From IMG/VR virus record IMGVR_UViG_3300020159_001932, positions 32,001-96,000 of that record: a stretch of 64,000 bases of DNA. One strand, given 5' to 3'. Below the pieces are notes generated by a model. That model ran no database searches and was not told the DNA's origin. It worked only from the letters and a program-made list of their open reading frames with translations. Position numbers and translations under genes: made by a program. The DNA is from a virus. Below, one piece after another: positions 31,454 through 58,877 of this stretch; position 1 is the stretch's first letter, and every line of letters starts with the position of its first letter.

Positions 31454-32734
31454 TTATAATCCTGTAAATTGAACCCAGACTTTATTTGTGCCATCTAATA
31501 TATATTGGAATGTGGCTCCTTGACTTGGATCTATCCAAAAGTCCCCTAATCTTGGACTCACAGGAGGAGTTCCAATTTGAAGGGTTGACCTTGGGGTATA
31601 TAATAAATTACTTTCTTCGGCAATACCTTCGCGACTATAAATGCTTTGGCTTGCTGTTATTGTTTGTACAAATAATTCTTTATAATTTGAGCTATAATAA
31701 AAATCAGGATCTTCAACAAGATCGCTGTAACTATTAGTTGACGTGCTCAAAATAATATAGTGGTTTGCATTTGTTGCTGAACTAACAAATACTTTACTAG
31801 AATAAGTCGAAGTAGTTACTGCAACATCGGCAAAATTTGCCCATGTGGCCGTACTACCATTTGATACTAGAACTGTATTTGTATTTCCTATGTCAATAAA
31901 TGCTGTTTGGTTTGCCGATGTTTGATAAGGTATACTACCTAATTTTCCTTTTTCAATATTGGTTGCTGTAGTAGCAAGTCCTATAAAATTATTAGCATAG
32001 GAATTTAAAAAGTAAGAATCTCTACGAACGTTTCCGCCAATTACCATATCATCTATGGATCCGGTTAAACTAGGTTGTATGATAATTGTTCCGCCCGCTG
32101 TAGGTCTAATATCTACATTTGCGGCCTGTGGGCTTAATACTACCTCTCCTAACCCATCAACAGTTAGTTCGCCTTTAATTAAAACGTCAGATTGTGCAAA
32201 AATTGCTGAATTAAATGTTGAAGTTGAACCAACAAATAATGTTGACCCAATATTTAAATTCTTACCAATGCCAACGCCGCCGGCTACTACCAATGCACCA
32301 GTTGCAGTATTTAGAGAAACTTCGGTGCTGGTAATTTGTAGAGTATATACTGTTGCTGTCGTGGCAGTAAAAATATTAGTTATAAAATCGCCGCCAACAA
32401 ATAAGTTACCACTTATGCCAACGCCACCTTCTACAACTAATGCTCCGGTGTTAGTACTTGTTGTAGCAACACTTCCTTGAACTACAATACTTGTGTTTGT
32501 GCCAGTGGCAATAAGAACAATGTTTTTATTTTGATTACTCCAAACAGTACTAGTATTAAATTCTAAATTACCTAAACTACTTGAATAAGTTGTAACTAAT
32601 TTATCACTTGTAACAATTGTAAAGCCGGTACTAGTCGATGGCGACGGCGGTAATTGAGGTTGTGCTCCTTTTAGGTCAATAAATTGACCACTTCCTCCTC
32701 GTCTTAATGTTGATCCGCTTAATAATCCTGGCAT
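31454..32734 (-). CDS. Fibre-like virion protein, 426 aa
   Basis: TGALVV.GGVGI repeats, GSIPYQ repeat unit, C-terminal P..PRLGDFWID...WVQ module. Confidence 0.72.
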   Translation of the reverse strand: MPGLLSGSTLRRGGSGQFIDLKGAQPQLPPSPSTSTGFTIVTSDKLVTTYSSSLGNLEFNTSTVWSNQNKNIVLIATGTNTSIVVQGSVATTSTNTGALVVEGGVGISGNLFVGGDFITNIFTATTATVYTLQITSTEVSLNTATGALVVAGGVGIGKNLNIGSTLFVGSTSTFNSAIFAQSDVLIKGELTVDGLGEVVLSPQAANVDIRPTAGGTIIIQPSLTGSIDDMVIGGNVRRDSYFLNSYANNFIGLATTATNIEKGKLGSIPYQTSANQTAFIDIGNTNTVLVSNGSTATWANFADVAVTTSTYSSKVFVSSATNANHYIILSTSTNSYSDLVEDPDFYYSSNYKELFVQTITASQSIYSREGIAEESNLLYTPRSTLQIGTPPVSPRLGDFWIDPSQGATFQYILDGTNKVWVQFTGL

Positions 32735-41177: not shown

Positions 41178-41846
41178 TTAAACGTTGGCAATTGTAACAA
41201 TTCCTGTAGCAGGACTTGTAATATTCCAACCAACACTTTGATTGTTGTTATATAAGAAACTACCGCTTGCTGTAGATTGTGTAATAATTGCACGGCGTGC
41301 TGTTAGTTTTGTAACATAGTATGTGCTACCGTTTCCGTCTGTAGCAACTAGGTTCATTTCACCAGCAGCCAATGTACTTGTGTTAACAAGTTTACATTGG
41401 CCAATACCGTCTGATGTTCTAACTAGATAACGCTTACTAGCTTCTTGTTTAACAATATCAGCAATAAGTGCGCTACCACCTGGCAAATATGCTCTTGTGT
41501 TTAAACCATTTTGAAGAGTAGTAGTCATTGTATAGGTAAATGTAGCCACTGTACCAGTTGTTCCGCCTGTAACAGTTGCAGTAGGCGTGCTTGTATAACC
41601 ACTACCACCGTCTGTTAATGTTACTGTTGCAACATTACCTAAATTATTTGTTGTTACATTACCAGTTGCAGTTTGTCCTCCTGCAATTTGTGGCGCTGTA
41701 AATGTTAAACTAATTGTTGTACTAGTTGTATAAAGTGTACCAGTATTGTTGTTAGCAATAGTAGCAACACTTTCACCACCTACGCCTTCGCCTGTAATTG
41801 CTACGTTTGTGTTAGCAAAAAATTTCTTTTTAATTGGACGTCCCAT
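41178..41846 (-). CDS. Putative virion (head decoration-type) protein, 222 aa
   Basis: Directly after the major capsid gene, with strong AAGGAG. Thr-rich, with a VTLTDGGSGYTSTPT structural motif. Confidence 0.6.
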   Translation of the reverse strand: MGRPIKKKFFANTNVAITGEGVGGESVATIANNNTGTLYTTSTTISLTFTAPQIAGGQTATGNVTTNNLGNVATVTLTDGGSGYTSTPTATVTGGTTGTVATFTYTMTTTLQNGLNTRAYLPGGSALIADIVKQEASKRYLVRTSDGIGQCKLVNTSTLAAGEMNLVATDGNGSTYYVTKLTARRAIITQSTASGSFLYNNNQSVGWNITSPATGIVTIANV

Positions 41847-41923
41847 TTTGTTTCTCCTTAAAATATAATGACGTTCTAGGTCTACGCAGATGGAACTGCA
41901 TAATACTTAGAATAGTATTTAAC

Positions 41924-50687: not shown

Positions 50688-51545
50688 ATGAATTCAAGTC
50701 CAAATCCACTGAGCATGTTTATGCGGCAGCCAAAAATTTACATTAAACTACCCAGCGGAGGTGAGTTTTGGCCTGATGGTACTTTAGATATTCCTGAAAA
50801 TGGAGAATTTCCTGTTTATTCAATGACGGCAAAAGACGAACTAATGCTGAAAGTTCCAGATGCGTTAATGAACGGACAGGCCATAGTTGATGTAATTCAG
50901 CATTGTGTACCAAATATTAAAAACGCATGGGCAACTCCTACTATTGATTTAGACGTGATACTAATTGCAATTAGATTGGCTACCTATGGCGAAATGATGA
51001 CTACTCCTGTTAAATTTACCGATACCTTAGAATTAGAATATCAACTTGATCTTCGAATCGTAATGGATCAACTTATGTCTCAGATTGGGTGGGATCCGGT
51101 TGTGCCTGTTAACGACCATTTAACAATTTTTGTTAGGCCGTTAACATACAAACAACTTAGTTTTGCAGCATTACAGACATTTGAAACTCAAAAAATTATG
51201 CAGGTTGTTAACGACGAAAAAACATCCGAAGAACAAAAAATAAAATTATTCAAAGAAAGTTTTAAGAAATTATCCGATGCAACATTGGGTACCATTGGAG
51301 ACAGTATATCTAGTATTGAAAGCGTTGGCGGTAGTACAGACAATCCTGAACATATCAAAGAGTTTGTAGAAAACATTGACAAAGAAATCTTTAATAAAGT
51401 ACAAAAACATTTAGAAATGTTACGAGATAGAAATACTGTAAAACCAATGATTATACAAGTAACTGATGAAATGCGTGAGCAAGGAGTAACAGGAGATACT
51501 GTTGAAGTTCCTATTACATTCGATCCATCAACTTTTTTCGTATAA
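50688..51545 (+). CDS. gp26: Baseplate hub assembly/tail chaperone (gp26-like)
   Basis: IKLPSGG, MTAKDE, IDLDVILIAIR.ATYGE, RPLTYK, C-terminal FF motif. Confidence 0.8.
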   Translation: MNSSPNPLSMFMRQPKIYIKLPSGGEFWPDGTLDIPENGEFPVYSMTAKDELMLKVPDALMNGQAIVDVIQHCVPNIKNAWATPTIDLDVILIAIRLATYGEMMTTPVKFTDTLELEYQLDLRIVMDQLMSQIGWDPVVPVNDHLTIFVRPLTYKQLSFAALQTFETQKIMQVVNDEKTSEEQKIKLFKESFKKLSDATLGTIGDSISSIESVGGSTDNPEHIKEFVENIDKEIFNKVQKHLEMLRDRNTVKPMIIQVTDEMREQGVTGDTVEVPITFDPSTFFV

Positions 51546-51550
51546 GGCTT

Positions 51551-51766
51551 TTGACACTAGACATTGAAGGCATCAATGCTTTAGTTTCAGATTACGATCA
51601 AGAGTCAAAAGCCTTAAAAGATGAAATTTTTAAAATTTGTTGGTATATGAGAGGTACCCCTATTTCAGAAGGGTACTTACTTTCTTTTGAAGATAGACAG
51701 ATTATTGCAAAAATTATTGAAAAGAATTTAGAAATAACAAAAGAAAGTGGATTACCGTTCTTTTAA
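51551..51766 (+). CDS. Small gp51-like ORF, possibly the -1 frameshift extension of the upstream gene
   Basis: ICWYMRG.....Y.LS.EDR..I motif. Only a TTG start with no well-spaced SD. Confidence 0.65.
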   Translation: MTLDIEGINALVSDYDQESKALKDEIFKICWYMRGTPISEGYLLSFEDRQIIAKIIEKNLEITKESGLPFF

Positions 51767-52593
51767 ATTATCATTCCTAAAAACCGACTTTCAAATCTAA
51801 CAATCTTGCCTTCGTTAGTGCCAGTTGCCATTCTTTCATTATCAGCATCCAACTCGGCTTGAGTAGGTGCCGCCGGAGCTGCATTTGGATTACCAGGTTT
51901 GGCTTTGTTTGTTTTACTTACAGGAGCATTGGCCATTGTATTAGGTTTATTGCCGCTTAGTTGATTGGCCATATTAGCCATTGCTCCACTATCTGCTGTT
52001 CCTGCTGCTGGTGCTTGACCTGCCGGTGTCGCTGGCTGTTTTTCTGCGGTCTTTTTAGCAATTGTAGCATCAACTGTTTTCTTAACACTCTGTAAATCTC
52101 GTGTTCTTAATGCAGGAATAAGTTTGTTAATTTGTCCTACTCCAACTTTACTTGCTTGATCAGCAGCCGGTGTTGCCGGTGGCTCGCTACCAGCAGGCGC
52201 TGGTGCTCCGCCAGTTGTTGGTGCTGGTGTTGTCGTTCCACTAGCTGTCGGTGCTGCGGCTGTTGGTGCTGCGGCTGTTGGTGCTGCGCCAGACGTTGGT
52301 GCCGGTGCACCTCCGCCTATACTTGCAGGATCTGTTAATGATGGTGTACTTGCAGTTCCGCTAGGTGTAGGTGCAGGAGTAGTTGTTCCTCCGCTGGCAT
52401 CCGTTGATGGAACGTCGTCACCGGCGACTGTAGCTTTTCCGGCGGCAAACCCTTTTTTCATTCTTTCCCAGGCACCAGGAATTGCTCCAGCAACTGCGCC
52501 AACACCTTGGGCAACTGCGCCAACTCCCTTTCCAAGGAAAGAACCTACGCCTTCGTTATTTTGCTCTTCCGCAAGTAATTCATTAATCTTCAT
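51763..52593 (-). CDS. Pro/Ala/Thr-rich putative internal head protein, 276 aa
   Basis: MKINELLAEE start; APT repeats; shares SKVGVGQINK domain with the upstream gene. Confidence 0.6.
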   Translation of the reverse strand: MKINELLAEEQNNEGVGSFLGKGVGAVAQGVGAVAGAIPGAWERMKKGFAAGKATVAGDDVPSTDASGGTTTPAPTPSGTASTPSLTDPASIGGGAPAPTSGAAPTAAAPTAAAPTASGTTTPAPTTGGAPAPAGSEPPATPAADQASKVGVGQINKLIPALRTRDLQSVKKTVDATIAKKTAEKQPATPAGQAPAAGTADSGAMANMANQLSGNKPNTMANAPVSKTNKAKPGNPNAAPAAPTQAELDADNERMATGTNEGKIVRFESRFLGMII

Positions 52594-52616: not shown

Positions 52617-54899
52617 TTAAATTTCTTTTCCTAAAAACTTGCTGTAAAAGCCTTGATATTTACCTTCAGCAGTCGGCTGTTTTCCAGATTGCCGTTTTGA
52701 CAACGTTGCGTCGACATTTTTTTGCACACTTTTAAGATCTCTAACTCTTAGTGTCGGAATAACTTTATTAATTTGTCCTACTCCAACTTTACTTTGCTTT
52801 TCTGCTTCTGGAGTTGGTGGAGGTTCTGCTCCAGGCGGTGCAGTTGTTCCACCAGGTGTAGGTGTCTCACCAGGTGCAGGTGCAGTTGTTCCACCAGGTG
52901 CAGGTGTAGGTGTCTCACCAGGCGCTGGTAGTTTTAAATCTGCAAAGACTTTAGTTACTGTTTCTGCAGGAACTCCTGCACTTTGTAGCACTTTAGCAAC
53001 TTCCTCGCTGTCTGTTGGGCTACCGGCTGCTGTCCATGCTTTGTTTAATGCATCAGCTGTAACTCCTCCTGCGGCTGCAGGAGCGGCATCTTTCTTTCCT
53101 CCCATCATTCCTTTGAGAGAATCCATAATGCCTTCTTTAACAGTAGGTTTTAAGACTAGACCGTGTACACGTTGTCCTTTTGATTCTTGCACTAACCACT
53201 TATGTAGCGTTGCTTGCTTGTCAACATACTTAGACTCTGCAAAACTTTCTTTTAGTCCACGAGTATTTGCAGGTTTGTTTGCCCAGTATTGTTTAGCATT
53301 TTCTGCACCTTGGGCCGCATCTGCCGCTTGCTGTTGCTGTCTTGCTGTAACAGCAGCCTGTTGATCTGGAGTCATTTGGTCCCAAGACGGTGCAGGCTCA
53401 AATGGCTTGCCAGTTAATCGGTTAATGCCAGGTGGTGTTTCACCTGGCATTCTTCCAGTTGCAGGTTCATCCATTGGCACAGCTCGCATTGGTTGTCCAT
53501 TTGGTCCAATTGGTGCAATACCTGCATCAAAGTTTTTACCTATAGTAGGTTCATCCATTGGCACAGCTCGCATTGGTTGTCCATTTGGTCCAATTGGTGC
53601 GATACTTGGATCTAATGCCCCAACTCCGGACATTCCTCCAGGTACATCTACTGGCTGGCCGCGTACTTTAATAGTTGGCTGCTCTATAGGATTGTTGCCG
53701 CCTGACATATCAGTTGCATTACCTGCACGTAGCGCATCTTTAGCAGCATTGATTTGATCAAGCGTCATTGGGCTACCGTCTGGGTTTGTGTTGGCCTTCA
53801 TTGAATCCCAACCTGAGTTTCCTCGTTTAGATCCACTGTCGCCTGGTGTTAAAGGTTCTCCATCTACACCGGTTGTTGCGCCCATTGAAACAGGCCCTTT
53901 CATATTTGCTTGATTGCTGATACCGGTTTGGCCTGTTATTGCGTGAGCCATTTCTCTGTCAACAGTGTAAGTTGATCCATCGGGTTTGGTAATTGTAACT
54001 TGTCCCCCAGGACCTTTACTAGAATCCATACTGGTAATAGTACCTTCACCGTTTGGCAATTCTTGGCCAACAGTTAAACTTGCACCAGCAAAATCGCTAG
54101 GAGTGTTTATTATCTTACTTTTTCCGTCGGTGCCAGGTGTGCTGCCGGGTGTTTGATTTGTATCATTGCTGCTGCCTGATGTCATTGCACTAACTGCTGT
54201 AGTGGCCAAGTTACCAATAACTGCGCTAGCGCCACCTAACAATGCTGGTTTAATAGCGCCCTTAAATGCCGTTTTCCAATCTTTACCTTGTAGTTTAGCA
54301 CTGGCTACAGCTACAGCACCTGCAACTACTGCACCTGTAATTGCACTAGCAACTGCGCCGCCGCCGGGAATCATACTAATAATAGGACCAACCTTGCTGA
54401 TCAATCCGCCAATACCTGCGCCAACTGCCGCAAGAATTAATTGTTGTGTTTCAGGTTTCTTAATACCAGATTTAACCCATTGCATTAAACTTTGTTTTGT
54501 AGAACTATCTACACCGGGTAAATTTTGAACTGCTGATGCTGCCTTTTCTTCAAATCCCTGGACTGCACCTGCATCTGGTGCAGGCAAACTTTTTTCCAAA
54601 TTTGCTGCTTGATCAGCAGGTAATACTTTATCAACAACCTTTGCAAGCATTCCAGGATCTTTTGGTGCAGTACCAGCACCAGAACCTGCTGCCTGTTTAA
54701 AGATATTTTGTATTTGATCAGGTGCTAGTGCAACTTCTGCAATATATCTTTCATATCCTCTTATAAAGCCCTCATCTAATTTCTTCCAATGAGGTTGCAT
54801 TTCAGGAGTTGAATATAAATTTTCAGATAGGTATTGTTTAATGATTAACTGATCATTCTCGATAATGTCTACTCGATTCAATAAGGTTCTTAGATCCAT
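52617..54899 (-). CDS. Low-complexity putative internal head/ejection protein, 760 aa
   Basis: TATAAATA at 54924-54931; Gly/Ala hydrophobic hairpin; P/G/T-rich linkers; repeated LxE/xEG sites. Confidence 0.6.
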   Translation of the reverse strand: MDLRTLLNRVDIIENDQLIIKQYLSENLYSTPEMQPHWKKLDEGFIRGYERYIAEVALAPDQIQNIFKQAAGSGAGTAPKDPGMLAKVVDKVLPADQAANLEKSLPAPDAGAVQGFEEKAASAVQNLPGVDSSTKQSLMQWVKSGIKKPETQQLILAAVGAGIGGLISKVGPIISMIPGGGAVASAITGAVVAGAVAVASAKLQGKDWKTAFKGAIKPALLGGASAVIGNLATTAVSAMTSGSSNDTNQTPGSTPGTDGKSKIINTPSDFAGASLTVGQELPNGEGTITSMDSSKGPGGQVTITKPDGSTYTVDREMAHAITGQTGISNQANMKGPVSMGATTGVDGEPLTPGDSGSKRGNSGWDSMKANTNPDGSPMTLDQINAAKDALRAGNATDMSGGNNPIEQPTIKVRGQPVDVPGGMSGVGALDPSIAPIGPNGQPMRAVPMDEPTIGKNFDAGIAPIGPNGQPMRAVPMDEPATGRMPGETPPGINRLTGKPFEPAPSWDQMTPDQQAAVTARQQQQAADAAQGAENAKQYWANKPANTRGLKESFAESKYVDKQATLHKWLVQESKGQRVHGLVLKPTVKEGIMDSLKGMMGGKKDAAPAAAGGVTADALNKAWTAAGSPTDSEEVAKVLQSAGVPAETVTKVFADLKLPAPGETPTPAPGGTTAPAPGETPTPGGTTAPPGAEPPPTPEAEKQSKVGVGQINKVIPTLRVRDLKSVQKNVDATLSKRQSGKQPTAEGKYQGFYSKFLGKEI
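53463..53600. repeat. Exact 54-bp direct repeat (APIGPNGQPMRAVPMDEP x2), 84-bp period
   Basis: aggttcatccattggcacagctcgcattggttgtccatttggtccaattggtgc at 53463-53516 and 53547-53600. Confidence 0.92.
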
Positions 54900-54930
54900 G
54901 GTGTATTCCAGAAAAGTATCTGTTATTTAT

Positions 54931-55369
54931 AAACGAACTGCGTTCGTTTGCTCTTTCGCTTACGCTCAGAGCATTTTTAACATCGTAGATGTTTAAATAT
55001 TATCCAGATTCTATGGTCACACTTAGCCCGTTTCCGGGCTAAAAAAATAACATTATCCGAGTTCGACAAGTCACACAGCGTTATGGCATTACAGAGGCGG
55101 TCATCCGGTACCCCGAGCCAAGTCTTTATTATGACGGCAGCTTATGTATATACGCTATCACATACATAAACCCGCAGGTTTTCCCTGCTCTTTTTGCCTA
55201 TATCTACTCTATTCAAACAATCAAACCGCAGGCATTTTGCGATCGTGGTCCTGTAAAGGATACTGATTGAGTACTCTTGACGGCGAGAGATTTCCTTCCC
55301 AGCGATCCGAGATCCTGGTTTCTGGGCACTAGATGTTTGCCAGTGCGAGCTTTTTACCGTTTAAGGAGC
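54931..55369 (-). ncRNA. Candidate large structured non-coding RNA (family not recognised)
   Basis: ORF-free gap with raised GC and at least 10 hairpins. G-U pairs and GAAA loops favour the - strand. Confidence 0.6.
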
Positions 55370-55798
55370 CTAAATTTTAGATTTTATGTGGGAGCCATGT
55401 ACACGGACTTGTATATGTCCGTTATAATAATCATCAGATTCTAATACTTTTTGGGTAAATTGTTCTCGAGCCTCTATATAACTGCATTCAGCCTTTGATT
55501 TACAATAAAAAAGTATTTCTCTTTTGAAATTTTCTTTGCCTAGTGATGTGATATCTGCTGTTAAGTTAGGACTGGACCCGTAATATTCCTGCCAGTCGCT
55601 GTCGATTTTGCTTCGAATCTTCTTTTTCTTTTTTGTGCCGTTCTTTAACTTTACAGTCTTGTAGGTCGTTTTACTAAATTTTGCTAACTTTTTGCCTATG
55701 TATTTTTTATTATTGATTAAATTTGTAATGATGTAGACAAATCCTACGCAATCATCTGGTAGTTGTTTAACTTCTTCATTGTTGTATGTCCACGTCAT
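55370..55798 (-). CDS. GIY-YIG endonuclease-family protein (Seg-like), 142 aa
   Basis: GFVYIITNLINNKKYIGKK, YYGSS, FKREIL, E...Q, YYN motifs. Confidence 0.88.
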   Translation of the reverse strand: MTWTYNNEEVKQLPDDCVGFVYIITNLINNKKYIGKKLAKFSKTTYKTVKLKNGTKKKKKIRSKIDSDWQEYYGSSPNLTADITSLGKENFKREILFYCKSKAECSYIEAREQFTQKVLESDDYYNGHIQVRVHGSHIKSKI

Positions 55799-56093
55799 TA
55801 GTTTTTTTTCTAAGATTTGTACCGAGGCCGCTAGTATTTCTATATTTTTGTTTTTTCATTTCTTTACCAAGGGCTTTTTTAATCAGTTTGTCTTCGTTGT
55901 ACGCATCTCTTACTGCTTGTTTGAGTTCTTTTTCAAGTTTGGCTATTTCTTTAATAGACTTACGAACACCTATAGACGAATCAAGACCTAAGTTTTTAAC
56001 AAATATAATATGGTAGTTATGTAAACTTACATGTGCGTCTACATATTTTGAATAAAGTTCTTTATATCGTTCTAAACTTTTATTATTCGACAT
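55776..56093 (-). CDS. Basic hypothetical protein, ~105 aa
   Basis: Likely start MSNNKSLERY at 56093, overlapping the gp46 end. Confidence 0.6.
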   Translation of the reverse strand: MSNNKSLERYKELYSKYVDAHVSLHNYHIIFVKNLGLDSSIGVRKSIKEIAKLEKELKQAVRDAYNEDKLIKKALGKEMKKQKYRNTSGLGTNLRKKTNDVDIQQ

Positions 56094-57864
56094 AGTCTGC
56101 ATTGTTACTATAGCTGGTAAATCCGTTTTCTTTGACCACATGAAGTACACTATTCACTCGTCCCATAAGTTCATCCTTGTGAGAAATCAGGTAAATGTTT
56201 TTATTTCTTTCGCGGGCCATCTTTTTAAGTACCGCCAGTGCGCTTTCAACTCCGGCAGAGTCCATGCCAGCATCAACAAGTTCGTCAATAAACAATAAAT
56301 TAATGCTTTGATACAGTCCTTCCCAGACATCACGGAAGGCAAAACTCATAGATAATATCAATCTATTGCGTTCTCCGCGACTTAAATTATCAAAGTCGAG
56401 GTCTTGTCCAAGTTGAGTAATTTGTACAGTAAGGTCATTTTGAAAAATAACTTGATGCGGTAGTCCTAGCTTATCAATATAATAGGTTAATCGCTTGTTT
56501 AGATAAGTTAAATTTTGATCTATGATTTTTTTTCTTATAAAACTATCTTTATTAGTCAATAACTTGTATAAAAATTCTTGATGATCTTTTAGTTTGGTTA
56601 ATGCATTAATTTTAGTCCAGCTAATTTCTTGAATAGCGGTCTTTTTTAATTCTTCAATCTGTTCGGCATATGGATTAATTTCAACAGCCTTTGCTTCTAA
56701 ACTTTTTTCTAAACTATCTAAATTATTTTTATGTCCAAGTGCTTCGGCTTCGGTTTCGTAGAATGTTGTAGGTTTTCTAGGTAACTCGCCTATTTCTTTG
56801 ATATCGTTGAGTATTTTATTAAGATCAGTTGTTACCTTGTCTAAATAATTATTAGATTCTTCTAAGTTTGTAATTGCAACAGCAGTCATTTCTTCATGTT
56901 TATGGTCATGAAGTTGTTGGTCACAGGCGTGACATGTTTTATTTTCTAGACTCTCAAGATCTTTTATATATTTGTTAACAGTCTTCTGTGCTTGAATTAC
57001 AGCACTCTCAAGTGTAGCCTTCTGCTTATTAAGATCCCTAAGCGTTTTATCATTGGATACCCATAGTTGTAAAGCAACATGTGCCGCTAATTCAGCAGTT
57101 ATATCTACTGATTCAAGATTAACAATGGCTCTTCCTAGATTTTCTAATTCAGTTTGTTGTTTATTTTCCCAGGCACTACTTTTTAGTTGTAAGCTATCGA
57201 TACTTTTTTGAACATTTTCATTGGCAGTTTTGATAGCAGCAATTTTAAGTTCTTCTTCTTGGATAGAATCTTTTGTTTCTTTAATTAGACTTTTAAGTGC
57301 TTCTGCCTTTACACTTAGTATGGTAATTCCTAACAATTGCTCAATAACTTCTCGCTGTTCTGCAGCCTTCATACTAAGAAAAGGTTCAGTATAGGTATTA
57401 AGAGCAACAAGATGTTTGAACATTGTATGACTCATTTCAAGCATTTCTTCAATACTTTTTTGAGTTTCTCTGCTATCACCTTGGCTGTCATCGTCAGTTT
57501 CTTCGGTCTTTAATGGGTTATCATTAATAAAAAGTTTAAGTACATTAGGCTTACGACCCCTTTCTATGCGATATTTGTTCCCACCCTTTTCAAATTCAAC
57601 GGTTACAAGCATACCCTTGCCGTTAATTTTATTGATTAGATTTTCTTTGCGTATGTTAGTCAGAGCTTGGCCATATAAAGCATAACTCAATGCATTGATC
57701 ATTGTAGTTTTTCCGGTGCCATTGCGACTTCCGGTGTCGTCGCCACCAAGGTCGTGGTTAGATCCAAGAACAAGTGTTAGATGTTCTTTATCAAACCCTA
57801 CAGCTTGAGTCTGTGCGCCCACACTCATAAAGTTTTTTACGGTGATATTTTTTAATTTAAACAT
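56083..57864 (-). CDS. gp46: Recombination ATPase, Rad50/SbcC-like (gp46)
   Basis: Walker A NGTGKT, Zn-hook CHAC, signature LSRGE, Walker B LFIDE, ISH. Confidence 0.96.
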   Translation of the reverse strand: MFKLKNITVKNFMSVGAQTQAVGFDKEHLTLVLGSNHDLGGDDTGSRNGTGKTTMINALSYALYGQALTNIRKENLINKINGKGMLVTVEFEKGGNKYRIERGRKPNVLKLFINDNPLKTEETDDDSQGDSRETQKSIEEMLEMSHTMFKHLVALNTYTEPFLSMKAAEQREVIEQLLGITILSVKAEALKSLIKETKDSIQEEELKIAAIKTANENVQKSIDSLQLKSSAWENKQQTELENLGRAIVNLESVDITAELAAHVALQLWVSNDKTLRDLNKQKATLESAVIQAQKTVNKYIKDLESLENKTCHACDQQLHDHKHEEMTAVAITNLEESNNYLDKVTTDLNKILNDIKEIGELPRKPTTFYETEAEALGHKNNLDSLEKSLEAKAVEINPYAEQIEELKKTAIQEISWTKINALTKLKDHQEFLYKLLTNKDSFIRKKIIDQNLTYLNKRLTYYIDKLGLPHQVIFQNDLTVQITQLGQDLDFDNLSRGERNRLILSMSFAFRDVWEGLYQSINLLFIDELVDAGMDSAGVESALAVLKKMARERNKNIYLISHKDELMGRVNSVLHVVKENGFTSYSNNADYVE

Positions 57865-58877
57865 TATAGGTTATTATAAATTTCTAATAATGTGTTTTTG
57901 TCAAACTGCTCAGACTCAACATTAACTAATTCTTGTGCAACAATCTGATCAACACTTTCAAATTTAGCATCGGGGTTATCGTCAATTGTGCCGTCTATGT
58001 TTGTTTTATCTTGTATGAGACTAATTTCTCTAATATCAAATTCATTGATAAATGTTTCTTTGATAAAGTTAGCTTCTTCGTAGCTAATATCAATATCAAG
58101 ATTGACCTTAAAGTGCATCTTATTTTTCATGATGCTGTCTTTTTTATCAATTAACTCTGAGAGTTTAATAGATCGATATTTAGGACAATCGGGCCAATTA
58201 ATAAAGTTTGGTTCCCCGCCCCAGTCTAAAGTCATCATTCCGCGATCATCATCCCACGCATCTGAAAAATTATGTGGAAATGCATTGCCTATGTACACAA
58301 CATTAGTATTTTTTTGCCTTTTATGAAAGTGTCCACTAAAAATGTAATCAGGCCCATTGAAATCTTCAGCACGTAGCTCTCCGTGATCCGGCATTTGAAC
58401 CATTGCATTCATAAAAAATTTGGGCAATTCAAAATGTCCAAAGATGTATTTGCTCTTGACATCTTTCATAGTTTTCCATTCGTCACCTACCAACCACGGT
58501 ACTAAGGTCACATCACCTATGGTAGTTACTTTTTCGACCACAGTGACGCCTGGAATATGTCTGCCAAATGCTGAACTATGAATATCACGCTTGTCTTTGT
58601 AAAACAGATCGTGATTACCCGGAAACCAAAAGAACTGTTCAAATGCAGCACCTAGCTTTTCCAGGCATCGAAGGCTTGTATCTAGTGTAATTAAGTTAAG
58701 ACTGTTACGGTTATGACTCCAGTCTCCGAGGAAGATTGAAGTTTCGCAACCTTCTTTTTTTGCTTCGTCAATAAACCAGTCTACAAACTCTTCGCAATCT
58801 TTTAAATGAGTAGTTGAGTTTGATTTAAGTCCAAAATGAATGTCAGTAAAACACGCGACCTTTTTAAATAAGGGCAT
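57864..58877 (-). CDS. gp47: Recombination nuclease, Mre11/SbcD-like (gp47)
   Basis: DIHFG, GD, GNHD, GHFE, SGHFH phosphoesterase motifs. Confidence 0.96.
   Translation of the reverse strand: MPLFKKVACFTDIHFGLKSNSTTHLKDCEEFVDWFIDEAKKEGCETSIFLGDWSHNRNSLNLITLDTSLRCLEKLGAAFEQFFWFPGNHDLFYKDKRDIHSSAFGRHIPGVTVVEKVTTIGDVTLVPWLVGDEWKTMKDVKSKYIFGHFELPKFFMNAMVQMPDHGELRAEDFNGPDYIFSGHFHKRQKNTNVVYIGNAFPHNFSDAWDDDRGMMTLDWGGEPNFINWPDCPKYRSIKLSELIDKKDSIMKNKMHFKVNLDIDISYEEANFIKETFINEFDIREISLIQDKTNIDGTIDDNPDAKFESVDQIVAQELVNVESEQFDKNTLLEIYNNL

Follow-up and report, generated by a model that had tools for sequence, protein, structure and literature searches.

The closest described relative of the element analysed here is the Polynucleobacter-1 RNA, a motif published by Weinberg et al. 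in 2010 (PMC2864571) and held in Rfam as RF01718. The table of that paper marks Polynucleobacter-1 'y' for RNA, 'y' for cis-regulatory and '?' for switch, and gives its taxa as Burkholderiales and fresh water/estuary; the rows of the Stockholm alignment in the supplement are ~135-172 nucleotides (nt) long (PMC2864571). Our literature search found the motif named in no further paper. The DNA that we examined is a stretch of 64,000 nt (positions 32,001 to 96,000 of IMG/VR record IMGVR_UViG_3300020159_001932; hereafter the window) from an uncultured virus whose record measures 132.6 kb. A first inspection of the letters (the sequence-only reading) had picked out, as the largest non-coding gap of the window, an interval that starts at the stop codon of a GIY-YIG nuclease gene. 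This was borne out: with no open reading frame (ORF) of at least 60 amino acids (aa) within 54900-55369, the gap measures 470 nt and is the largest ORF-free stretch of the window, the runner-up having 231 nt.

The gap holds a conserved, structured element of ~440 nt on the minus strand (54931-55369), which runs from an AGGC at the nuclease stop codon to a terminal hairpin. Its 5′ domain, helices P1-P6 (55215-55351, minus strand), is RF01718: cmscan placed the model in full (positions 1-141 of 141) at 55351-55215 (-), with 106.1 bits against a gathering threshold of 37 and an E value of 5.7e-22. The model accounts for 137 of the ~440 conserved nt, and our results indicate that the RF01718 motif is only the 5′ domain, the first third, of a much larger RNA of ~440 nt. 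The novelty expected of the gap is lost for these 5′ 137 nt, which are already known, and stands for the remaining two thirds and the overall architecture. When 54850-55450 was scanned with cmscan at E values up to 10, the only other Rfam matches, in the remainder of the gap, were at chance level (E 0.78 and 1.4).

In our reading, the minus strand of the gap is the gene for a large and independent non-coding RNA (~440 nt), with RF01718 as only its 5′ domain, and we would give this slightly better than even odds (roughly 0.55). In the element, a pseudoknot closes the 5′ domain, two pseudoknots interlock in the 3′ domain, twin modules flank a hairpin, and three terminal hairpins complete the structure. 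The analysis supports an RNA-like element that is large, ornate and pseudoknotted, comparable in size and complexity to GOLLD/ROOL and found in many phages. The suggestion of a phage RNA of GOLLD/ROOL character therefore holds for size, complexity and presence in many phages and fails at the level of the models, since the same scan gave no covariance-model match to GOLLD, ROOL or other catalogued large RNAs.

Extent and fold of the element

With a pattern built from the motif, 77 viral contigs were retrieved. By blastn, identity is 70-86% across ~400-450 nt, not 141. Column conservation, taken over 59 distinct sequences, is 0.64-0.96 all the way from 55375 to ~54916 and collapses at the start of the next gene. 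At the 5′ edge, the conserved AGGC overlaps the nuclease stop codon and is kept also where the upstream ORF is another gene. A blastn search of the element against the phages collection gave no match. Variation within the element lacks codon periodicity (0.20/0.22/0.22 by phase), and a coding role was rejected on the absence of this 3-base pattern.

The minus-strand fold beats 100 of 100 shuffles (z -3.88). To describe it, we curated 111 pairs by hand on a structure-blind MAFFT alignment of 58 distinct sequences, with RNAalifold and a column-pair scan as guides. The curated structure has 91.5% of its cells paired, compared with 37-44% when the 3′ partners are slid, a covariation score of 0.380 (0.05-0.08 slid), and changes on both sides in 67 pairs (31-38 slid). 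None of 500 shuffles reached any of the five measures; as the aligned sequences are related, the shuffle counts are not probabilities and the slid controls are the fairer yardstick. In all there are ~18 covarying helices on the minus strand of the gap, with good support for pk1, P1-P4, P6, P7, P8, pk2, P9, Ph, Ps, Px and Pt. P5 (UCCU/AGGA) is 99.6% paired yet essentially invariant, and so shows no covariation. G-U pairs are frequent (in P8, UG 25 and GU 26) and, read as such, are compatible with the minus strand only; GNRA-type loops are present as well.

Nearly all of the helices drawn by the sequence-only reading are supported by these counts, as is the covariation in homologues that it called for. 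They include GCACT/AGTGC, CCAG[GATC/GATC]CTGG and CTCT/AGAG; AATCA/TGATT with TCCT/AGGA and CGCA/TGCG inside; and GGC/GCC, GGGG/CCTC and TTAGCCCG/CGGGCTAA. Three details were not retained. The outer ACTC/GAGT helix is paired in 23-52 of the 58 sequences, depending on the pair; a GG/CT extension of the first hairpin has one pair that forms in 4 of 58; and the inner GG/CC (read as GGT/ACC) is invariant and competes with the covarying pseudoknot helix GTCAT/ATGAC.

The 5′ domain is closed by pk1, one of two pseudoknots that had been proposed, in which ACGGU (55356-55360, minus strand like all that follow), a strand outside the Rfam model, pairs with GCCGU (55280-55284) in the P3 loop (95.2% paired, 3 of 5 pairs compensatory). 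Beyond P6 come two hairpins, both already seen in the sequence: P7, GCAGG-GAAAA-CCUGC (55174-55188), with 4 of 4 pairs compensatory, and P8, the 13-bp GGTTTATGTATGT hairpin (55139-55172), with 12 of 13. The P8 loop AUAGCGU (55152-55158) forms the second proposed pseudoknot, pk2, with ACGCUGU (55075-55081); here 6 of 7 pairs are compensatory and 99.2% are formed. Between the strands of pk2 lies a pseudoknotted core (55083-55135) of P9 (GUCAU 55131-55135 with AUGAC 55100-55104; 3 of 5 compensatory, 97.2% paired), P10 (55117-55121 with 55083-55087; 4 of 5 compensatory) and P11 (GGGG 55111-55114 with CCUC 55094-55097; 1 of 4 compensatory, 93.1% paired). P9 crosses both P10 and P11, its 3′ strand sitting within the P11 loop. 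Further on are hairpin Ph, UAGCCCG-GAAA-CGGGCUA (55024-55041), whose stem covaries, and three terminal hairpins (54931-54991): Ps (54981-54991; 3 of 3 pairs compensatory), Px (54950-54972; 5 of 5), which has the conserved loop GAGCG-NAA-GCGAAA, and Pt (54931-54949; 6 of 8). A GC/GC mini-stem within the Px loop also covaries (GC 62, AU 12).

As an independent test, we built a covariance model of the 3′ domain from its nested helices only and searched 80 loci fetched through the nuclease protein, these being the best 80 among the viral contigs, at least 598 in number, in which a close relative of the nuclease is encoded. Although absent from the search model, pk2 (7 of 7 pairs compensatory, 93.3% paired) and P9 (3 of 5, 92.7%) were both recovered in the 59 distinct matches. 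P10 and P11 also hold in this protein-sampled alignment, in which the nested helices are biased to the model by construction.

The twin modules are the most unusual feature of the RNA. R1 (55052-55076) and R2 (54999-55022) each consist of GUGUGAC, a variable stretch, A-ACUC in R1 or A-AUCU in R2, and the 7-mer GGAUAAU (55052-55058 and 54999-55005, respectively). They lie ~53 nt apart, 3′ of pk2 and on either side of Ph, and appear to be single-stranded. The 7-mer is the same in R1 and R2 of one locus and differs between loci: the four variable 7-mer columns of R2 have their top mutual information with the same position of R1, with identity in 59/59, 58/59, 58/59 and 59/59 sequences. A regular expression that used the anchors only gave a twin identity of 7-9 out of 9 where it was correctly anchored; mis-anchored rows, which had caught an upstream ACAC, gave 1-2 out of 9. 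Sixteen exact twin 7-mer variants were seen, a selected count, as the filter required at least 6 of 7 identical positions. The guide-like variable segment looked for by the sequence-only reading is present in the form of a twinned 7-mer only, much shorter than known guides.

Several other candidates were set aside. A third CGGATAAT at window position 51269 lacks the module context and was taken as a chance match. Pairing of R1 with the AUCU side of R2, a proposal of RNAalifold, is broken in 38 and 10 of 83 sequences, and a GUGAC/GUUAU stem around R1 is only 70.7% paired. A group I intron, a hepatitis delta virus (HDV)-like or any other catalogued ribozyme was rejected because none had an Rfam match at E up to 10; a group I intron with an endonuclease ORF was rejected also because the gp46 gene upstream is full length and the downstream genes are unrelated between loci.

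Gene neighbourhood and occurrence in phages and Polynucleobacter

All genes around the gap are on the minus strand. Upstream of the element lie a gp47-like ORF (57864-58877), a full-length SMC/AAA ORF of 593 aa, here called gp46-like (56083-57864), a 124-aa ORF between this and the nuclease gene, and the gene for a SegE-type GIY-YIG nuclease of 142 aa (55370-55798; phrog_447). The 142-aa protein matches Pfam PF19835 over residues 3-129 (E 4e-33) and has no further Pfam domain, in line with the earlier view of it as a catalytic domain only, with a basic insertion; a PDB sequence comparison gave no match. The next gene after the RNA is a 760-aa low-complexity ORF (52617-54899) with no Pfam or PHROG match. 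It is one of two Ala/Pro/Thr/Gly-rich low-complexity ORFs, the other being at 51763-52593 (-) with 276 aa and equally free of Pfam or PHROG matches; the two have a common C-terminal stretch, KVGVGQINK.IP.LR.RDL. Elsewhere in the window, a freshwater-2 RNA (Rfam RF02980) was called at 41844-41918 (-) with 52.5 bits, barely above the gathering threshold of 49.9.

The genes after the RNA are hypervariable: the long ORFs fall into at least seven clusters that have in common only an N-terminus of the type MK(I/V)xE(I/V), which we take to resemble the capsid targeting sequence of T4 internal proteins. In a passage of one report, the internal proteins of T-even phages are described as highly diverse, with the targeting sequence alone conserved (PMC3012670).

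At E up to 0.01, the 3′-domain model matched 68 of the 80 protein-sampled loci, in every case on the same strand as the gene; 54 of the loci scored 57-135 bits and 14 scored 20-29 bits. In none of 12 weak-scoring loci that were scanned (of the 14) did RF01718 reach gathering. Ten loci (L139, L174, L176, L143, L173, L152, L117, L130, L170 and L180) form a class B, in which the RNA, at about 1927-2400 of all of them but L176, has a differing 5′ ~200 nt and keeps the 3′ pseudoknotted domain, the twin modules and the terminal hairpins. By eye, in an alignment of nine sequences, class B has a P8-like hairpin whose loop AUCUAU pairs with AUAGAU, P9 as GUUGA/UCAAC, P10 as UGAG/CUCA and P11 as GGGGG/CCUCC, along with both twin modules, the Px loop GAGCnnAAGCGAAA and Pt. 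Because class B keeps the 3′ half without a match to RF01718, our results indicate that this uncatalogued half is the common core, which is more widely kept, and that the RF01718 motif is one kind of 5′ domain.

RF01718 was also found in 18 of 141 Polynucleobacter genomes searched (17 above the cut-off), in some of them twice, and on three contigs of lake metagenome-assembled genomes; one of the Polynucleobacter sites has the published NC_009379 coordinates. The RNA is shown to recur in freshwater T4-like phages, on hundreds of contigs, and in Polynucleobacter, on small chromosomal islands. An architecture drawn by hand on locus L085 fits 17 aligned bacterial copies with 89.8% of positions paired (34-45% slid) and 28 compensatory pairs (9-13 slid). 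It comprises pk1 (CUACCG/CGGUAG, 100% paired), P8, pk2, P9 (GUUUU/AAAAC), P10, P11, an R1 hairpin, Ph, Px and Pt. Variation among these copies is low, and they support the structure more weakly than the phages do. The rule that both modules of a locus carry the same 7-mer holds in class B phage loci and in the bacterial copies too.

Among the 19 loci from bacterial genome assemblies, one (L097) is phage-type, and the other 18 have a divergently transcribed DUF6641 gene upstream of the RNA and no nuclease gene there. Downstream, after variable ORFs, a tyrosine recombinase of 188 aa is encoded in 11 of the 19. The order in the islands (L189 9138-14402; L190 6148-10715) is DUF6641, divergent RNA, variable ORF, 188-aa tyrosine recombinase, an ORF of 260-270 aa and an AAA ATPase, and the Polynucleobacter island is flanked by housekeeping genes. 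Nucleotide homology from island to island ends at the 3′ end of the RNA and resumes at the recombinase. An invertible segment, considered because two homologous ORFs lie on opposite strands, was rejected, since nucleotide homology does not extend past the RNA and inverted repeats are absent from the flanks. No homologue of DUF6641 was detected in the phage record, and it does not resemble the 124-aa ORF of the phage; its structure model (predicted local distance difference test, pLDDT, 71) had no PDB fold match at E up to 0.001, and our literature search found no paper naming it.

Two loci deserve separate mention. L097 (G122:C80:7050-9200), on a contig binned with a Polynucleobacter genome, carries the end of gp46, the GIY-YIG gene and the RNA (122 bits to the 3′-domain model), and may point to the host or be an artefact of binning. 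L085 (2-1567, minus strand), from P. rarus, has an ORF that starts ~400 nt after the 5′ domain of the RNA and whose GIY-YIG-like N-terminus (GIYILVG...LYIGEG) is of another kind; the ORF is mostly masked.

Weighing the explanations

If the gap is the gene of an independent RNA, that RNA could be produced by processing from the nuclease transcript or start at its end, and it would act alone as a folded scaffold. Its twin modules would then show the same 7-nt word twice to a co-evolving two-fold partner, either a protein dimer or a nucleic-acid site that is present in two copies. The GIY-YIG gene is a conserved neighbour in this phage lineage, dispensable for keeping the RNA, and the junction of gene and RNA attracts insertions and replacements, among them one homing-endonuclease-family gene and two PD-(D/E)XK endonuclease genes.

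A number of observations weigh against an independent RNA. The first concern the twin word, for which there is no consistently placed exact complement within 1.2 kb (55 loci; 17 bacterial loci) and no covarying column complementary to it by mutual information; nor is the 7-mer enriched in the 132-kb record, where the 11 and 9 occurrences are at ordinary percentiles. Covariation with G-T pairs is also compatible with a folded single strand of DNA. The RNA follows the nuclease gene in 71 of 76 evaluable protein-sampled loci, so that some functional coupling is possible. The phage 3′-domain model misses the bacterial copies (at E up to 1 when filtered, and with only noise when the filters were off), and the 3′ homology of these copies therefore rests on the shared architecture drawn by hand. 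At the ends, a sigma-70-like site (55403-55374) would start the RNA at ~55367, and its -10 element is conserved only partly; the terminal hairpin lacks a clear U-tract. The Pt stem covaries, but a simple terminator scan made no call and the tail AUAAAUAA has few U residues. As for expression, DNA of this stretch is found in lake and freshwater metagenome runs of several studies, and one lake RNA-seq run has a contig of 158 nt that corresponds to 55067-55221 and shows 4 differences. It is no more than a weak hint, as such contigs give no strand, ends or level and may derive from DNA, which can contaminate these libraries. Runs labelled as RNA cover only small shares of the stretch (X18 covers 55719-55913 alone, and X20 is RNA by guess), and the parts left uncovered are uninformative.

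An alternative that we consider unlikely is a cis-acting leader, which in early or middle read-through transcripts would control termination, processing or translation of the hypervariable next gene. This would agree with the tentative cis-regulatory mark in the 2010 table (PMC2864571). The phage elements always end within ~30-60 nt of the start of the next gene, and the conserved DNA in the bacterial islands stops at the end of the RNA. The last hairpin also overlaps a promoter-like TATAAATA (54924-54931, minus strand), which lies 25 nt before the ATG of the next gene, overlaps the end of Pt and recurs at varying distances after Pt in many loci of the MAFFT alignment; we take it to match the T4 late-promoter consensus. 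However, the whole fold lies upstream of TATAAATA, so the element would be missing from late transcripts of the next gene. The genes that follow show no relationship from one locus to another or from phages to bacteria, known leaders are far smaller than an element of ~440 nt with three pseudoknots, and no alternative structure that would mask the ribosome-binding site was found.

The sequence-only reading had favoured a ribonucleoprotein, in which the minimal GIY-YIG protein would bind the RNA for target recognition and the twin 7-mers would serve as guide-like words. Several features fit. The RNA begins at the nuclease stop codon and comes after the gene in 72 of the 77 RNA-sampled loci, as in the 71 of 76 given above. 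A homologue of the 142-aa protein is encoded upstream of the RNA in each of the 72 and directly abuts it in 70. The protein has no DNA-binding domain, its basic insertion is longer than in the three RNA-less homologues that we compared, and the twin 7-mers differ between loci. The two samples share contigs and represent one phage lineage, and the linkage may therefore be plain synteny.

Against the idea stand several exceptions. Five RNA-sampled loci lack the homologue: two are cut off, L003 and L039 have a PD-(D/E)XK endonuclease (PF24608) in its slot, and L025 has a 151-aa ORF of unknown kind; in the last three the RNA is kept, as it is without the nuclease in 17 of 17 bacterial-type loci of the Polynucleobacter islands. 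ORFs are inserted between gene and RNA in L028 and L055, where the extra ORF has a homing-endonuclease PHROG match (E 7e-15), and in at least six further loci. Twelve of the 80 protein-sampled loci have no match to the 3′-domain model: in four the sequence breaks off within 170 nt of the gene, RF01718 is present in L128 and L186, and L143 is class B. In the other five (L149, L182, L187, L156 and L162), an ORF comes directly after the gene, and the 1.5 kb examined contains no RNA. Further afield, tblastn found the nuclease family in 494 phage records, in one place each and mostly in cyanophages. RF01718 is absent from the whole records of the three cultured phages that were checked, complete genomes with homologues at 37-54% identity, namely Melnitz (54%), Variovorax phage V45v66 (41%) and P-SSM2 (37%); in P-SSM2, the next gene abuts the nuclease gene.

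With the RNA found without the nuclease in bacterial loci and three phage loci, and the nuclease without the RNA in 3 of 3 phages, the two are separable in both directions, and the nuclease is a close syntenic neighbour rather than an obligate partner. Its gene occurs in 72 of the 77 RNA-bearing loci and in 494 phage records, yet it is replaced by other nuclease genes in two loci, and beyond close relatives of this phage group the linkage is no longer tight. A 7-nt word is also far shorter than known guides. We therefore judge a ribonucleoprotein to be improbable, and an RNA-guided GIY-YIG nuclease to be unlikely. As an aside on the same family, members of PF19835/phrog_447 are often annotated 'NAD synthetase', for example PSSM2_218 of P-SSM2 (L108 2935-3372) and in many cyanophage records, which looks like a propagated misannotation.

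We also hold it to be improbable that the element works as DNA, folded as a single strand or as a duplex, at a replication origin or at a site of recombination or cassette exchange, with the twin modules as repeated binding sites for a protein or as crossover cores. Concerted evolution of direct repeats, as seen in the twin modules, is typical of iterons, and also of recombination sites that come in pairs and have the same core. Conservation ends exactly at the start of the variable gene region in phages and bacterial islands alike, and the tyrosine recombinase lies downstream in the 11 of 19 bacterial-assembly loci noted above. On the other side, the GNRA-type loops, the interlocking of the pseudoknots and the ~18 covarying helices are what RNA tertiary folds show. 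The turn in GC skew falls at 59-61 kb, together with that in gene orientation and away from the element, and lends no support to the replication origin that had been offered as an alternative. Neither an inverted nor a third copy of the twin word turned up near the variable genes, the phage loci showed no recombinase, and the twin modules have no flanking inverted arms.

It is very unlikely, finally, that the twin modules are programmable specificity loops whose 7-nt word pairs with two DNA or RNA site copies, for example identical crossover cores, so that the RNA joins or aims an adjacent nuclease or recombinase and drives hypervariable cassette exchange at its 3′ end. If they were, the enzymes would be GIY-YIG or PD-(D/E)XK nucleases in phages and the short tyrosine recombinase in Polynucleobacter islands, and a bridge-RNA-like principle would operate in a new RNA with new enzymes.

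Significance and known systems

Polynucleobacter is a common freshwater bacterium. The RNA named after it has been an orphan motif of 141 nt in Rfam since 2010 and now appears as one domain of a much larger RNA, in a family that is abundant, with at least 598 viral contigs encoding close relatives of the neighbouring nuclease. Our analysis supplies its boundaries, a tested secondary structure with three pseudoknots, and the puzzle of two loops with the same variable 7-mer. It thereby opens the RNA to experiment, as has been done for other large orphan RNAs.

The twinned word recalls the c4 antisense RNA of P1/P7, the CI antisense RNA of P4, the repeats of type III antitoxins and the bridge RNA of IS110, all of which have a short word in two or more copies that match within one element and differ between elements. 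Unlike in those systems, a search of the surroundings found no complement of the word, genes for a toxin or an IS110-type recombinase are absent, and the repeats lie ~53 nt apart within a much larger fold.

The OMEGA/HEARO RNAs of IscB and TnpB are alike in being structured RNAs that adjoin a small nuclease gene in a mobile context. In contrast to them, the nuclease here has the GIY-YIG fold and not that of RuvC, RNA and nuclease are separable, and in place of a long variable guide at the end there are only the two 7-nt words.

The free-standing GIY-YIG homing endonuclease genes of T4, the seg genes, sit beside conserved genes. Their products have the same catalytic motifs as the 142-aa protein, and the setting is similar too, in that the slot beside the conserved RNA gene is held elsewhere by other nuclease genes and a homing-endonuclease-family ORF has been added in L028 and L055. 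The 142-aa protein differs in lacking the C-terminal DNA-binding part, and its gene, with one copy in each of the 494 phage records, cyanophages included, looks conserved more than sporadic.

With GOLLD, ROOL, OLE and raiA, the element shares a length of >400 nt, many covarying helices together with pseudoknots, a location on phages or mobile islands, and the lack of an obvious coding or cis-regulatory role. It differs from them in matching none of their Rfam models and in adjoining a nuclease gene instead of tRNA genes; we know of no counterpart to the twin identical loops.

Closest of all is the Polynucleobacter-1 RNA, with which the element shares a match to the full model, the freshwater habitat and occurrence in Polynucleobacter genomes. 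The model and the published alignment comprise only ~141 nt, to which the ~440-nt element described here adds a 5′ pseudoknot strand, a double-pseudoknotted 3′ domain, the twin modules and the terminal hairpins.

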